Notes under the pieces: model-generated | Seen by the model: only the letters and a program-made list of their open reading frames with translations | Database searches by the model: none | Told to the model about the DNA's origin: nothing | In this document: positions 30,176-60,422 of the stretch, in pieces | Numbering within the stretch: the stretch's first letter is position 1 | Layout of the letters: every line of letters starts with the position of its first letter | DNA from: Octopus vulgaris | Lineage: Eukaryota | Direction: 5' to 3' | NCBI GenBank assembly: GCA_951406725.2 | Contig: OX597816.1 | Coordinates: 124,930,001 to 124,994,000, forward strand | Length of the DNA: 64,000 nt | Made by a program: the position numbers and the translations under genes

Positions 30176-31615
30176 TTACTTCTCAGGACATTCGGTCTTG
30201 TTTGTTCTGGTAGACTCCGTGAGAACGGATAGCAGCCTCCCGTCAGAGGTCTCACAGGGTCTCTTACTGCAAATTATAAACTTTAATACTTGGTTGTTAA
30301 TTATTGTGGTAGGCATTCAACATCTAAGTACCAATCTCAAACTCCTAACTGTCCCCAGCGGAGCATTTGTGGGGTGGGGCTTGCTCTGCTCTCATATCAA
30401 TACCGATTTCTTTGACAGATTTCTCGAACTTAGTTGTTGGTGCTCCGAATGCCCCTACAACAACTGGAATGACAGACACTCTCCTCATAGTCCACCTTCT
30501 CACAATTTCGTCTGTTGGTAGTCTACACTTATCAATTTTTATAGCCCTTTGTCACTTATGCGTGCATTTCAAAGTAATGCAATACTTACGATCATGGTTT
30601 CCTTTTTTACTTTATCTACCACAACAATATCTGGTATCCAAGCCTAGGGAACACATTGGATTGTAAAATCCCAGAGTATCTTATGTTCCTTGTTCTCGTT
30701 GACTACTTCTGGTTCATGTTCGTACTCTTTCCGTGCTCTGTTCAGGTCATACTTTTCACAGAGATCCAGTGGACGACCTTGGCTACGTTATCATGCCTGT
30801 CTTTGTAGTGCTTTTGGCCCAGCTTGCTACGCTCACTCACAATATCTGAGTTTGTTTCATTTCTGCTGCCACACATCCTATAAAGGTGCGATTCATTACT
30901 TTTACCTATATGGAACATGATGTAATTAGTTCTCAGAGCTTGTTTCTGAGCGCTGCATATCAATGCCTCAGTGCATCCTTTTTCGTAGCCATCTCCAAGT
31001 GTTGATCTTGTTTTTTCCATTGATTTCTCAGAGGTATTGTGCATGCAATGGTTTCATTTTCCAGCTTTTTACTCTTTCTTCTTAATTTGTTTCTTAAATG
31101 TTTGTGAGTGCATCGCATTTTCGGTAGGTATTATATTGTTAATTCTAAGAGCGGCAAGCAAGGATTCACTCTGCTGTTTGATTAACCAACCAAGACTGTT
31201 CTTCTCGTTGACAACACTGATTTTCCATCCCATGAGACCTATTTCACTCCTGTTTCTAGGCACATACAGTCTGTCAGTATCGCTTTTGAGGAGTAGCACC
31301 TTGTTAATTGTCATCACTTTTCTAGCTTTCCTATCCATTTCCTCAAGCTCGTTCTTTGTCCACCTCACAATACCTGCGTAGTCTCACGTTACAGAAACAG
31401 CGCATGTGTTCATTGCCCGAATTTTGTTTTTTTTCATTGAGTCAACTTCCCACAATTAATTTGGTTCTTTTGAGATATTCTCGTTTCGAGCTTTCCTTCA
31501 TATCATTTTCTTTGTTGTTGTCGTATTCTAAAATCCCCAGATATTTATATCCATTTGTCTCAATATCCTTCATTTTCTCGCCGTTGTGTAGCTCTAAACC
31601 AACAGAAGACACTAC
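30176..31615 (-). mobile_element. R4/Dong-type non-LTR copy, family D, 5'-truncated and degenerate
   Basis: GYKYLG, WTKNELEEMDRKARKVMT, DRLYVPR, TEALICSAQKQALRTN, YRMCGSRNET, RHDNVAKVVHW, VIPVVVGAFG; triplet tracts on both sides. Confidence 0.85.
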
Positions 31616-31621
31616 TTGACA

Positions 31622-31893
<272 letters not shown>

Positions 31894-31899
31894 ATATGT

Positions 31900-32606
31900 C
31901 GACTAACAGACTTTCCTCTTCTTTGTTGATCTGGGTAACAATATCTGGGCAATAATATACGATCTTGATATCTATGAATACGGTTGCTTTTTCATATCCT
32001 CAAAAATGGTTTTGGGATATGCCTATACCATCTATTTTATGAAGGCATTTCACAATGTTTGTACAGTTCGCGATATATGTAAGTCCCAAATATGTGTGGA
32101 TATATCATTTCTTGATTATGACTGGGCAGCGACAGATAATATATTATATTGTTTCTTCCCATTAATAAAATATTCTGATTCTAACTGTATTCTGCATTCT
32201 GTTTCATTGTGTGTTCGTCGGTTGTTTTTATGTGAAGGCTTTCATTTTGTGTCGAAATTGTGAACCCACCAGTCTCTAATCAAAATCCTCCTATAAATGG
32301 TTTTCTTACCATCACTTGATCATGATATTCTTTACACGCAGTTTTAACATAGAATTTGCTTGGACTACAGTTACTGTTTTTCTTCTCTTTCTTCATAACA
32401 ATTAGTTGTTTTGACTTGTACTTTGTATTTTGCGGCTTCCCTGACAAAAGAGAACTTTTTGAATGTTCATTTAGGTATGTATGTATGTATGTATGTATGT
32501 AAGTTTCTCTTGATTCCGATTTATATATTTTTGCACTCCTGTATTTTATAGTACTTCTCTAGTTCCACAATAATGATACAAACTCTCAACGTTTTCAACT
32601 TCGTAA

Positions 32607-34113: not shown

Positions 34114-34989
34114 TTTTTTTTTCTTCTTTCAAATTTGCTTCCATTTCTTGCCGAGTGTCTTCCCGACTCCTAGGGCAAAGAAACTCATAGTATACATTGG
34201 TAGGCCATTAAACCAAACTCAATAGTTCGTTCATTTTTTTTTTTTTTTTTAGGTTAAATTAAAATACATGAGCAGCAACAGTTCTCACATCGACAATGCT
34301 CTTCTCAATACGTGTGATGTACCAGTTAAGACAATCTTTTGCACTTCTTGCAGGGATGGTAAGCCAGAGATCATTCTCATATAATTTTCGGTTCCCTTCT
34401 TGATCATTCCTAGTGCTCCTACGATCAGTGGTTTTGTAACCGCCTTGAGATGCCACATTGTCTCAATTTCAATGAGTAGGTCTTTATATTTTCTGAGCTT
34501 GTCAAACTCTTTCGCTGAGATATTATGATCACAGGGGATGCTCATGTCGATCAATAAGCAAACTTTATTGTTTTGGTCTTTCACAACAATATCTGGTTTA
34601 TTGGCCTTGATGGTTAGGTCTGTATGTACTGGAAAGTCCCACAGAATGGTTACATTTTCTCCTTCAGTTACAGCCTCAGGGTGGTGATTATACCACTTGT
34701 CGGCAGTTTTGATATTGTAATGCCGACTTATTAGCCAGTGTAGATATTGGCCAACTCTGTCATGTCTTAATTTATACTCCACTGGAGCTAAGACTTTACA
34801 TCCAGAGATTAGGTGGTCCACTGTTTCAATCATGTCGTTGCAGAATCGGCATTTTGGGTCTGCTCCATTTTTCATCACATTGGCCTGGTAGTTCCGGGTT
34901 AATAGGCTTTGATCTTGAGCAGCCAGGATGAAACCTTCGCTCGCTGCTTTTAGCCCTGAGCTCCGTAGCCACTGATGGGTTTGCTTCTG

Positions 34990-34990
<1 letters not shown>
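34113..34990 (-). mobile_element. R4/Dong-type non-LTR copy, family C, 5'-truncated between (ATT)n tracts
   Basis: ORF 34285-34878: CRFCNDMIETVDHLISGC (CCHC), RHD, KPDIVV...IDMSIP.D...K..KY (RLE); (ATT)n at 34053-34112 and 34992-35061. Confidence 0.92.
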
Positions 34991-35044
<54 letters not shown>

Positions 35045-40289: not shown

Positions 40290-40810
40290 TGTTTTTGCAC
40301 ACCTTCCAACGCTGGAGATGTACTACGGTGCCAGCTGATCACTACCAGTGAACTAAGGTAACATTTGGAGTATTCGAGCGGTTCCAAGCAGTGCTGTCTT
40401 CTGCAAGTGCTCCAACATTATTAAAGCCCCTATTTGTTCCATGTAAATCTCAAGATTTTTACCCACTGTTCCCAGGGCTCCTACAATTATTAGTACTACC
40501 ACCACCTTTTACTACCACATACCTAGTTAGCAACTTCCTTGTCTTTCTGCCTAAGGTGTTTATTTCGTCTAATGTCCATGCGATTACTCCTGCTCCATAT
40601 CTAAGGAGGGAAAGTGTCCAGGTGTTGATAGCTTCGATCTTAATCCGTCCATTAATTTCGACTCAAGGATCAGTTTCAGACTGCGAAAGTACTCCATCTT
40701 AAATTTTTCTGTCATTTCTTTCTCCATCAATTTATCTATTTCCAAAATCTCCAAGTACTTATAACCCGTTTCTTCTATCTGTATCTGCTTCATAACCTCC
40801 TCCGACGGTA
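40290..40810 (-). mobile_element. R4/Dong family B, internally deleted copy
   Basis: GYKYLEILE...EYFRSLKLILESKL, LQKTALLG, family B 3' UTR. Confidence 0.8.
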
Positions 40811-40882
40811 TTATTATTATTTGTTGTTGTTGTTGTTGTTGTTGTTGTTCGTCTTCTTCTTCTTCGTCTTCTTCTTCTTCTT

Positions 40883-40986
<104 letters not shown>

Positions 40987-40991
40987 CATTG

Positions 40992-42461
40992 TTCAGTAGT
41001 TTTATTTTTATAGCGTGCTTTCACTTCACTACCGAGCACAGCTGTGTGCCTTAGGTATGTGCTGTGATTTGTTGTGATGCTCTGATGGTTATTGTATGGA
41101 AAGTGTTCGCGTAGGATGTGTGCAGTGCCTAGTAGTGCAATTTTCTGTATACTATATGTGTTTTTAAGTCCTGGTGTTTTTGTTATGTATTTGTCTGAAT
41201 ATTTTTTTATCATGCCTAATGTACCTACTAAGATAGGAATTGTTTCTGTTTTTAGATTCCACATTCTGGTTACCTCTATTCCCAGGTCTTTGTATTTTGA
41301 AAGTTTCTCCATTTCTTTTCGAGACACGTTGTCATCTGCCGGTATTGATACATCAATTAGAAAGCATGTTTTTTCTTCATGATCTCTGATAACTATATCT
41401 GGTCTGTTGGCCTTAATTTCTCTATCTGTGTGTATCGGCATATCCCAGAGTATGGTTCCTTTCTCGTTTTCTGGGACCGTTTCTGGTGTGTGCCTATACC
41501 ATCTTTTTTCTGTTGTTATTCCATAATGTTGGCATAGCTTCCAGTGTATGTGGGTTCCAACTCTGTCATGTCTGTGAATATATTCCTTCTTAGCCAGGAA
41601 TGGGCAGCCAGAGATAATATGATTTATTGTTTCTTGTCCATCTCCACATATTCTGCAGTTACTTGTTATATTTCTTTTCATTACATGTTTTTGGTAATTT
41701 CTGGTGGGGAGGCTTTGGTCATGTACAGCAATTAAAAATCCCCCTGTCTCTGCTTTGAGTTCTGAGCTTCTCAACCATCGCTGGGATTTTTCTTTGTCTA
41801 TTTCTTTCGCGTTTCGTTTAGTCCAGTATTTACCATGAAGGGGCTTTTCTTGCCATCGTTTTATCATGGTTCGTTGCTGTTCTATTTTTAGTTTGGATTT
41901 CATTTGTTTTATAGCTTTTGTTGTTTCTTCATCTTCTTCTTCTTGTTCTTCATATTTATTAGGTGGTATGATTTCTTGTTTGTATTTGTCAGCTTCCTTA
42001 AATACTGAGAACAGTTTTTTTGTTTTGCTCGTGTTTTGCCGCTATTTGTATCAGTTTTCCTTCCTTCTGAAGTAGATATTTTTGCAGTCCTATGGTGGTT
42101 ATTTTATAGTAGTTTTCCAGCTGTATAAGGCCTCTACCACCTTCTATACGTTGTATATATAGTCTTTCTATGTCAGATTTTGGGTGATGCATTCCAGATC
42201 CTGTCATTATTTTTCTTATTTTCCTATCTATTTTGGTCAGTTCATTTAGTGTCCAGTTAAGGATATTGTAGCTGTAACATATAACTGGGACAGCTAAAGT
42301 GTTAACACCTATTATCTTGTTTTTAGCATTGAGCTCTGTTTTCAGTATTGATCTAACTCGTCTATAATATTCTTTTTTTATTTTCTCTTTCATTTGTGTG
42401 TGTTGTGTCTTATCTAGTTCATGGATTCCTAAGTATTTGTAAGTTTGGCTTTGGTCTAATT
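40992..42461 (-). mobile_element. R4/Dong family A copy 1, 5'-truncated, frameshifted
   Basis: ORFs 41998-42393 and 40986-41903 closely similar to the 540-aa ORF but broken by indels. Confidence 0.95.
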
Positions 42462-42467
42462 TTTATA

Positions 42468-44365
<1,898 letters not shown>

Positions 44366-44406
44366 TATTTAGCATATCAATAATATTTAGCATATCAATA
44401 ATATCA

Positions 44407-58135: not shown

Positions 58136-59267
58136 TGTATTTGTGTTTATTCATCTTCAAAGCAAAGATATTTTGCATTAGATTAAACGACCATTACTTT
58201 GAATTTATGCTTTCTAGTCAGAATAATTTTTGTAATTCAGAAGCATTGAACCTTCTGTAGAGTATGACATTTTTCAGTAATTTATTAAAACTTTTCATTT
58301 TATGACTCATTATAAATTGCTGTAGTGTATCAATAACATTTTGCTGGCCTTATAAATGCAAGAGAACGTTTGGAACATTTATTCTTTTATTGCTTAGTAT
58401 ATTTCTTCATCAAAAAATAGTAACAATAGATTTTGGAAAACAAGGCCTCGTTTAATAAGAAAATATATTGGCAAGTTAGTTGACCTGCGCCTGCTTTGAA
58501 AATGAAATATTTACACGCTGAATAATCATTTAACCATTTAAGAACACACAAAAACTGTTGTTTACTTTTGTTGCAGTATGGTACATATCTAATACGAAGT
58601 GAACGAAAAGCAAAGGACGGAAAATATTTTAAATGTTCCTATATTTTGTAGTATATATTTTGTTTCTCGCATAAGCATTAGTTGCATAAATGATTCTAAT
58701 TTAAATCTTTCGCCACTTGTGTATTAGCTACAACTAGAACGACTGTATCAGGTTAAGAAAATTTCTTTTTGCAAGGTTAAGAGAGATCATACATAATCGT
58801 AGAATCATCAGAGCTTGCATGCTTTGTGTTTCACAAAGGCATATTTTTGAACGATGCTCTTGGAACAGTTACTGTGGTGGGTTAAACTTTCTTGCGGTAA
58901 TGTGCTCCCGTTGTGTGTTGAAATATGATAGACGAATTAGTTTGGTAACTTGGGGTAATGGGCTCTGGCTCTGCGTTGAATATGATAAGGTAAATATTTC
59001 TGCCCAGTGGTTAGCTTTTCAGGTGGAATAAAATGTAAAGACTATTTATTACTATGAACAGTTGACAGAAACATATATATATACCTGAAACATTAGCTGA
59101 TAAAAAGCGCCATAGCATTCGAGTTTTGAGCTGTAGGTGTGTATCTCATCTACTTTACTCCAGTCGTTAACAACCAGGTGAAACGAGGATACCTAAAGTG
59201 CTTCACTGCAAATATAAACATCGTGGTCTTCTGAAAGTGATTCAACAATGGTGAGTTTTATATTACT

Positions 59268-59629
59268 TACATTGTTTACATTATTTACATATGATGGATT
59301 GGATATTTGTCCCCATCTTGTTTGTTGTTAACACGTTTCGGCTGATATACCCTCCAGCCTTCATCAGGTGTCTTGGGAAATTTCGAACCATGGTTCTCAT
59401 TCCTGAGGTATTTTTCGATGTTGTTGTTATTGTTGTTGTTGTTCTTCTTCTTCTTATCATCATTATCATCATCATCATTATTATTATAATTATTATTATT
59501 ATTATTATTATTATCATTATTATTAGTATTATGATTATTATTATTATTATTATTATTCAGGTCACTGCCTGGAATCGAACTCAGAATCTTGGAGTTAGTA
59601 GCTCGCGCTCTTAACCACTACGCCATATG
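59268..59629 (-). mobile_element. tRNA-head SINE-like element with internal (AAT)n and a hammerhead-bearing tail
   Basis: Minus strand head tatggcgtagtggttaagagcgcgagctactaactccaagattctgagttcgattccaggcagtgacctg (A box TGGCGTAGTGG, B box GTTCGATTCC), triplet tract, then gacac-CTGATGA-a-ggctg-gagggtatat-cagcc-GAAAC-gtgtt, ending in tgtaaa(t/c)aa repeats. Confidence 0.8.
59328..59372 (-). ncRNA. hammerhead ribozyme-like motif (probably defective in this copy)
   Basis: Core CUGAUGA and GAAA with 5-bp helix II GGCUG/CAGCC; GACAC/GUGUU can form helix I, but no room is left for helix III and the UH site. Confidence 0.55.
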
Positions 59630-60422
59630 ACCTGAATAATAATGATAATAATAATAATAATAATAATAATATTTTGCTCTATTTATTTACAATTACTTTA
59701 AATATCTACACAATAGTCTTATGTTTTAGTTTACAATTATATTAAGATTCTGGTTGCAGACAAACAATTATAACCCCGTATCTAGTACTCTTTATATTAG
59801 TTATATTATTTTATGACTAGATATATTTATTATTGCTTATTATAGCCATATCTTTGAATTTTGCAATATCTCTTACATTTTCCGGTGTTTTAAAGACTGG
59901 ATGATTTTTCTTTAAGATAATTTTCGGATGTGCTTATAGTACACAATCCATTCTCCAGTTGCAAACATTCTAACAATTATGTAGCATATACTTCATTATT
60001 CTGATTATACCTCATAAATTCACTGACACCAGCTTACCTCAGCTTTTTAAAATAATTATTACAAAATATAGCATATATTGTTGGGAACCGAATCGTAACG
60101 ACAGGAAAAGGAAATTATCCTAAATATGATAGTACAGCATCCTGCATCTACACTGATGTTGTGCATGCAATTATAGACTTTAATAAGCATAATTTTATCC
60201 AATTAATCGTTACATGCTGCTGTTTTACTGTTTCACATTGAGTTTGTTCTCCATTCTGAAACATTTCACGTCAATAACGCTGACAATACTCTAGACAAAA
60301 GTGGTCATGTTCTATATTATTTCGCAATTATCAGAAAATTAGAGGTATTTTCCTTCAGTCACATAATACCAAACTTACCTTGTCAAATAGGATCTTCACT
60401 TTTCAGGTTACAATATTTATGT

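Follow-up and report, generated by a model that had tools for sequence, protein, structure and literature searches.

A tRNA-headed, hammerhead-bearing repeat of Octopus vulgaris read as the terminal repeat of a Poseidon-type PLE

On the minus strand of a 64,000-nucleotide stretch of the Octopus vulgaris genome (assembly GCA_951406725.2, contig OX597816.1, positions 124,930,001 to 124,994,000; hereafter the window), a tRNA-like head with an A and a B box is followed by an AAT-rich tract, a unique stretch, a hammerhead motif and short repeats. The first-pass annotation described these parts just as we find them, and proposed that together they form a ribozyme-bearing SINE that either uses PLE machinery or defines the end of its RNA by self-cleavage. 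The question raised by this locus is whether such a unit is a SINE in its own right or a piece of something larger. Our analysis points to a real and abundant PLE terminal repeat rather than a new class of SINE, with transcription of a coding retrotransposon by RNA polymerase III (Pol III) as a possibility, one that would be unusual among mobile elements that encode protein. The parts of the window copy are as follows.

59632-59263, minus strand: whole element
59558..59632, minus strand: tRNA-derived head, read as the opening of the PLE terminal repeat (pLTR); without a cloverleaf call
59625-59615, minus strand: A box of the head
59580-59571, minus strand: B box of the head
59421..59557, minus strand: AAT/GAT/AAG/AAC tract of variable length, an R4/Dong-like insertion target
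59398..59400, minus strand: ATG, likely start codon, in frame with the PLE ORF in intact copies, the frame crossing the ribozyme
59330..59372, minus strand: minimal type I hammerhead of the PLE type, with 3 bases missing at helix III and the scissile site
59263..59329, minus strand: 3' part of the pLTR with 9-base repeats, stopping at the shorter of the two family 3' ends, without the optional tail
59628..59671, plus strand: remnant of an inverted second arm (last 7 head bases and AAT tract), head-to-head with the main copy

The window head differs from the commonest letters of its family at four positions, one of them due to the inverted arm, and its A and B boxes are spaced as in a tRNA. That arm, an ATT tract and the motif AGGTCA just upstream of the head (59628-59671), had been overlooked in the earlier description, and the window copy is a head-to-head pair whose inverted arm has decayed. 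ARAGORN called no tRNA in the window, Rfam at its gathering score called no hammerhead there, and under the gathering score Rfam matched neither hammerhead nor head in loci L026 and L034.

Family size and identity of the repeat

Across the 2.8 Gb of genome searched (227 contigs), 21-base words from the ribozyme, the head and the downstream part gave 5,231, 4,006 and 11,492 exact matches, respectively, whereas the reversed word of each gave none, which argues that the matches are not due to chance. Since the downstream word is carried exactly by 40 of 94 sampled copies, its matches would correspond to roughly 27,000 tail segments, and the element belongs to a high-copy family; an alternative copy estimate of about 93,000 was discarded as invalid owing to how its sample was picked. 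The linkage of head and tail extends genome-wide, as the first-pass annotation had supposed, since 23 of the 29 further head-anchored loci have the tail downstream on the same strand. Several host tRNAs are 55-65% identical to the head; of the 10 compared (an incomplete host set), Arg-TCG, Arg-TCT and Ala scored alike, and none could be singled out as the parent. At locus L187 (G000:C12:25267077-25270148), seven tRNA-Cys-like genes or pseudogenes are clustered within 3 kb.

The surroundings of the unit indicate what it belongs to. At one tail-anchored locus an endonuclease frame lies directly upstream of the head, and a search with this frame yielded 30 ORF-anchored loci, in 27 of which the head follows the ORF stop and in 2 more of which its first bases do so; the spacing between stop and head is 29 bases in undamaged copies. 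At the other end, L216/L349, L347 and L348 show the 3' end of the tail passing in frame into the beginning of the ORF. The order in L234 is tail-ORF-head-AAT-tail, and in partial tandems (L234, L216, L347 and L348) the pLTR is common to both ends of the ORF. No intact head-AAT-tail-ORF was seen in one piece; there were four exact matches to the junction, and L350, the sole one with a full head, stops a few bases into the ORF. Because the head follows the ORF stop and the tail runs into the ORF start, we identify head, (AAT)n tract and hammerhead, on sequence evidence, as the pLTR of a Poseidon-type PLE, and recognize no independent SINE. Hence the machinery does come from a PLE, as had been suggested, namely an autonomous one with head, AAT tract and hammerhead as its own terminal repeat. 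The notion of a separate SINE borrowing a PLE tail, on the other hand, is not supported, since the PLE carries the whole unit and short and ORF-linked copies show no diagnostic difference.

The end of the ORF matches Atlas GIY-YIG clusters at 0.97, with the GIY-YIG family on 15-20% of cluster members, and relatives of the ORF protein at 57-72% identity carry RVT_1. Pfam gave a weak RVT_1 match on the ORF (E 0.001) and no direct GIY-YIG match, and a PDB sequence search returned nothing. The predicted product is an RT followed by a C-terminal GIY-YIG endonuclease in a single ORF, as in PLEs of the EN+ type, and we take the clade to be Poseidon, judging by the domain order and by sequence motifs. 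Some 70 bases ahead of the scissile bond lies an ATG whose frame runs through the ribozyme into the ORF; the frame is open for 55 codons in L350, continues into the ORF frame of L216/L347 and is stop-free in 2.5% of shuffles, so that this ATG is likely to be the PLE start codon. The tail also contains a GT..AG stretch of 38-56 bases, which was considered as a retained intron, and no spliced GT..AG joint for it was present among the RNA-run contigs. A metagenome protein scan for relatives with flanks found none, while a metagenome scan with the ribozyme pattern gave 11 contigs, 2 with a PLE ORF upstream and none with an A/B-box match or tRNA call.

Of 162 insertion clusters, 80 were single, 79 head-to-head and 3 of other kinds. 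TSDs of at least 7 bases accompanied 37 of the 79 head-to-head pairs, compared with 4 of 162 in a shifted control; they were found only around such pairs and at none of the 80 singles. The 3' ends are bimodal, 43 of 94 falling at T126-155 and 45 at T167-175, and in 95 of 110 inverted pairs the optional tail of about 35 bases is present on one arm only. Head-to-head pairs, a one-arm optional tail and TSDs are PLE signatures. An optional tail is described for PLEs in the available portions of PMC8557442 and PMC3846280, and the accessible part of a study of an anole PLE (PMC11167929) traces it to two internal reverse-transcription start sites on uncut RNA and places the ORF start of that element inside the ribozyme. 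Head-to-tail tandem monomers bounded by the cleavage site, the mark of a retrozyme, were absent from the 162 clusters.

The AAT tract has a median length of 41.5 bases in 136 uninterrupted units, and 23 of 159 head-to-tail units carry an insertion in it. At least 7 of these 23 insertions show protein motifs that we take to be of the R4/Dong type, in agreement with the proposal that the tract is a landing site for R4/Dong-like LINEs. We read this Dong target as a by-product and not as a function. A recurring element of about 500-600 bases, in which no coding motif was found, occupies the tract in eight units (L003, L011, L026, L042, L045, L058, L257 and L311) and is possibly a Dong-dependent SINE or a long LINE 3' UTR. 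Many AAT tracts elsewhere in the window are flanked by R4/Dong-like LINE fragments (486-1100, 31400-32100, 34800-35000, 40600-42700 and 44200-44400), and these tracts look like insertion targets or products.

The hammerhead and its scissile site

Ribozyme columns were counted on 56 segments picked on head or ORF, and not on the ribozyme, and the sequence built from their commonest letters comprises a helix I of 5 bp, CUGAWGA, an additional A, helix II, GAAACGUU and the return strand. Judged by the descriptor of minimal PLE hammerheads in the available text of PMC4209133, the family has the CUGANGA/GAAA/UH core, the extra base after A9, G10.1-C11.1, a palindromic helix III and a helix I of 4-5 bp, and the window copy falls short of it. 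The first-pass annotation had pointed to the consensus as the place to look for a cleavable core, and there the family indeed has an intact minimal hammerhead of the dimer type. It had also guessed correctly which bases the window lacks at helix III: in a hand count of the first 100 of 7,849 matches, the linker was full-length in 89, shorter by 3 bases in 7, by 2 in 2 and by 5 in 2, and 44 of these 100 read exactly GAAACGTTGTG. The core is intact in the family. The window copy has lost 3 bases at the scissile site and has no UH triplet, and its ribozyme is predicted to be inactive. Single-strand folding did no better than shuffled sequences.

The gap rate at the cleavage site is 6%, against about 2% nearby, and this excess may be a weak genomic hint of self-cleavage. 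The 3-base loss at the scissile bond (window 59330-59340) recurs in about 7% of copies, usually in one arm of a pair; the two arms are discordant in 5 of 6 affected pairs, and the loss is commoner in ORF-linked copies (12/54 vs 2/46, nominal p 0.005). Its excess over a 2-base slip (7/100 vs 2) is suggestive of a scar left by RT jumping across cleaved RNA, but slippage at microhomology would also account for it. That self-cleavage sets the end of the copied RNA, the second suggestion of the first-pass annotation, is not supported, as copies pass uncut through the site of cleavage. Of 94 3' ends a single one falls at T80-95, and of 71 5' ends four fall at T84-90. We rejected cleavage-defined ends for want of a pile-up at the site, which was missing even though the 5'-end sample was depleted of copies with the exact ribozyme word, a bias that should favour such ends.

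Origin of the short copies and the polymerase behind them

For the 5' ends, we used 89 loci chosen by the ribozyme word alone, from among the first matches on contig C1; 79 of the pieces include the head. Among these, 31 begin at -8..+3, 25 within the head, 18 further upstream than -30 and 5 at -30..-9, the last on inspection being mostly fold-back or AT-rich artefacts; the density of ends is 2.6 per base at -8..+3 and 0.01-0.02 per base beyond -30. Exact-word matches likewise number 4,006 for the head but 1,029 for a word some 40 bases further upstream. This 5' wall coincides with the place where transcription from a tRNA-type promoter would begin. When 57 head-start and 67 ORF-linked copies were compared over 249 columns, none separated them after correction (best p 0.004), and their divergence is 6.2% and 6.4%, respectively, so that there is no sign of a separate SINE lineage. 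Gaps in ORF-linked copies reach about 10% at -9..+10 compared with 1-5% elsewhere in the head, upstream gap rates being biased low as many loci were chosen for their likeness there; a template jump or a palindrome at the ORF/head junction would give such a peak.

The pile-up of 5' ends at the head most likely represents run-off at the RNA start. In the scheme that we propose, the PLE RNA would start at the tRNA-derived cassette, possibly made by Pol III, and the uncut RNA would be copied from two internal start sites, located 120-160 bases inside the ORF, to produce the two 3' ends, as extrapolated from the anole PLE (PMC11167929). The cDNA running off at the RNA start would give rise to short copies; it could also fold back on a short palindrome at -7..+5, or jump or read on into an upstream ORF, which would yield long copies. 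The least secure step, which could about equally well hold or fail, is that the polymerase is Pol III and reads the whole 2.5-kb unit. We regard the window element as probably a solo pLTR copy of a Poseidon-type PLE with the tRNA-derived A/B-box cassette first, likely generated by RT run-off at the 5' end of an RNA that is possibly a Pol III product.

Short copies might instead constitute a true SINE, in which Pol III transcribes solo heads independently and the PLE protein mobilises them again in trans, making it a SINE nested in its partner's pLTR. Internal A and B boxes go with every copy, the 5' wall stands at the head, head-start outnumber ORF-linked copies among tail-anchored units (57 vs 19), and the triplet directly following the head is slightly skewed (AAT in 27 short and 15 long copies, AAC in 7 short and 26 long; nominal p 0.004), all as such a SINE would have it. 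We nevertheless consider it unlikely, given the matching ages and the lack of a diagnostic column after correction. Moreover, the anole PLE template requires ORF sequence to +172, past the copying start sites (PMC11167929, available part); solo copies end at those sites and would lack this stretch, and both 3' ends are kept at about equal frequency, which fits a longer template. Still less credible is a structural stop, whereby RT on a longer RNA breaks off and folds back on itself at the -7..+5 palindrome with no RNA start there. Fold-back sequence does occur at the head start of several copies, and palindromes at pLTR 5' ends have been reported and read as self-priming (PMC3846280, in the portion available), but the stem here measures just 5 bp, many of the pieces with ends at -7..+3 show no fold-back and are joined to unrelated flanks or to an arm truncated on its own, and a snap-back requires a freed cDNA end, which run-off provides.

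If run-off at an RNA start is the origin of the short copies, the polymerase has to be considered. Taken over 180 heads, the commonest sequence retains an intact A box and an intact B box, although no cloverleaf was called; at 0.945-0.954 vs 0.929 for the rest of the head, the conservation of the boxes in genomic copies is barely better and uninformative, since only a weak difference is expected for dead copies. Pol III reading the ORF implies that TTTT runs should be absent from it, and across the 2.3-kb ORF (108 segments) TTT is the majority state at 12 sites and TTTT at none. By comparison, TTTT accounts for 8 of 28 TTT runs in a sister PLE that shares the genome and the T content, for 6 of 29 in another PLE, found on a metagenome contig, and for 15 of 75 in 14 Dong-like stretches, a set from which 10 of 24 rows were dropped as non-LINE or flank-contaminated. 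Given these ratios, 0 of 12 has a p of about 0.02-0.07; a Fisher test against the sister PLE gives p 0.079, dinucleotide shuffles p 0.057 and 0.12, and synonymous-codon shuffles p 0.32 and 0.12 (two overlapping stretches). It should be noted that the test is modest and concerns one family, with a coverage of only 7-13 copies in the first 600 ORF bases, and that TTT runs are also fewer in this ORF. The lack of shared TTTT in the ORF is a hint, not proof, of Pol III transcription. Depth in RNA-run contigs goes up at the head, as does copy number, and these contigs carry no start, strand or level information.

The same PLE end-piece and the same run-off are compatible with a Pol II RNA whose promoter, in tandem arrays, is a TATA-like motif at -34; the tRNA cassette would then be a captured passenger. 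The motif, TATAAG, overlaps the ORF stop and would place a Pol II start near the same position, its spacing fitting a start near -4, so that by position Pol II is supported as well as Pol III. Known PLE promoters are Pol II-like in the accessible text of PMC2377424, with TATA/Inr in that of PMC3846280; capped RNA would be easily translated, and the TTTT signal reaches only p about 0.02-0.08. Against this stand the consensus A and B boxes, left unexplained in a head whose remaining sequence has diverged by 35-45% from host tRNAs, and the equally unexplained zero TTTT in 2.3 kb vs 8 in the sister family, so that we hold Pol II to be a serious contender and yet rather doubtful. Pol III transcripts are uncapped, which counts against Pol III as the source of a coding RNA. 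On the fullest form of the Pol III reading, the PLE would have swapped its Pol II promoter for a captured tRNA-type one and purged its 2.3-kb ORF of TTTT terminators; Pol III would transcribe it end to end, the uncapped RNA would be translated from the start codon upstream of the ribozyme, and run-off products would flood the genome as SINE look-alikes. We advance this tentatively, with slightly more doubt than conviction.

Relation to known elements

The family resembles Penelope/Poseidon EN+ PLEs in its ORF of RT followed by GIY-YIG (available portions of PMC4209133, PMC8557442, PMC3846280 and, for anole PAc, PMC11167929). As far as these sources extend, it also shares with their pLTRs the minimal hammerhead with an extra base after A9, the palindromic helix III and an ORF start overlapping the ribozyme, and with the elements at large an optional tail of 30-40 bases, inverted pairs, TSDs and a ribozyme left uncut in copies. 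It departs from the Penelope/Poseidon PLEs described in those portions in that a tRNA-derived A/B-box cassette and an AAT tract form the start of the pLTR, 5' ends are concentrated at the cassette and the ORF is without shared TTTT. In PMC3846280, the terms 'tRNA' and 'polymerase III' occur 0 times.

The schistosome SINE-like elements Sm-alpha and Sj-alpha, too, reach high copy numbers and combine a tRNA-related Pol III promoter with a type I hammerhead downstream of it (PMC6765202, PMC2770079 and PMC8490949, in part). In the available text they are non-coding and often tandem, with a canonical hammerhead and no autonomous carrier named, whereas here the unit lies within a coding PLE and copies are solo or inverted. 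The TRIMp3 elements Cassandra, Helenus and Ajax offer another parallel, a small-RNA-derived Pol III promoter captured in a terminal repeat, proposedly via SINE insertion; according to the accessible portion of PMC10886601, these are short non-autonomous LTR elements, in contrast to a cassette in the repeat of a protein-coding PLE, and autonomous LTR partners are argued to require Pol II. Animal non-LTR retrozymes are likewise short hammerhead units related to PLE pLTRs (bioRxiv 10.64898/2026.07.22.740005; PMC7761336), and a PLE origin has been proposed for them (bioRxiv 10.64898/2026.07.22.740005, 2026); in the parts available of these sources they form head-to-tail tandem units, and no such arrays were noted in the loci examined here. 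The bioRxiv text has 0 matches for tRNA or Pol III.

Searches confined to published papers found no PLE with a tRNA-derived pLTR. The family is not described in the available portions of two cephalopod repeat papers, and that of PMC4758252 mentions only OR2, as a CORE-SINE. The family may already be catalogued under a SINE or Penelope name, in Dfam, Repbase or SINEBase or possibly as one of the published octopus SINEs OK/OR1/OR2. What appears to be new is a PLE pLTR that opens with intact Pol III A and B boxes, together with a 2.3-kb ORF without shared TTTT.

The RNA start site of PLEs and the origin of solo pLTRs are open questions in the field. With thousands of copies whose 5' wall coincides with a recognisable promoter cassette, this family allows the run-off model to be put to a direct test. 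Should Pol III indeed read the ORF, this would contradict the expectation, voiced for LTR elements in the available part of PMC10886601, that autonomous elements need Pol II; how such an RNA gets translated would then become a question, and a direct route from PLE to SINE would be provided. Furthermore, the family serves as a caution that what repeat libraries list as 'SINEs' with a tRNA head can in fact be the ends of PLEs, and it offers a possible origin for Sm-alpha-like elements.

The sister PLE is a second, young family (L343-L346, e.g. G000:C2:60201486-60205970, and about 30 further matches) with intact frames of 674-1199 aa. It is unrelated at the DNA level, and in its pLTR CCAAT- and TATA-like motifs precede a variant hammerhead-like motif; some of its matches are inverted pairs about 4 kb apart.
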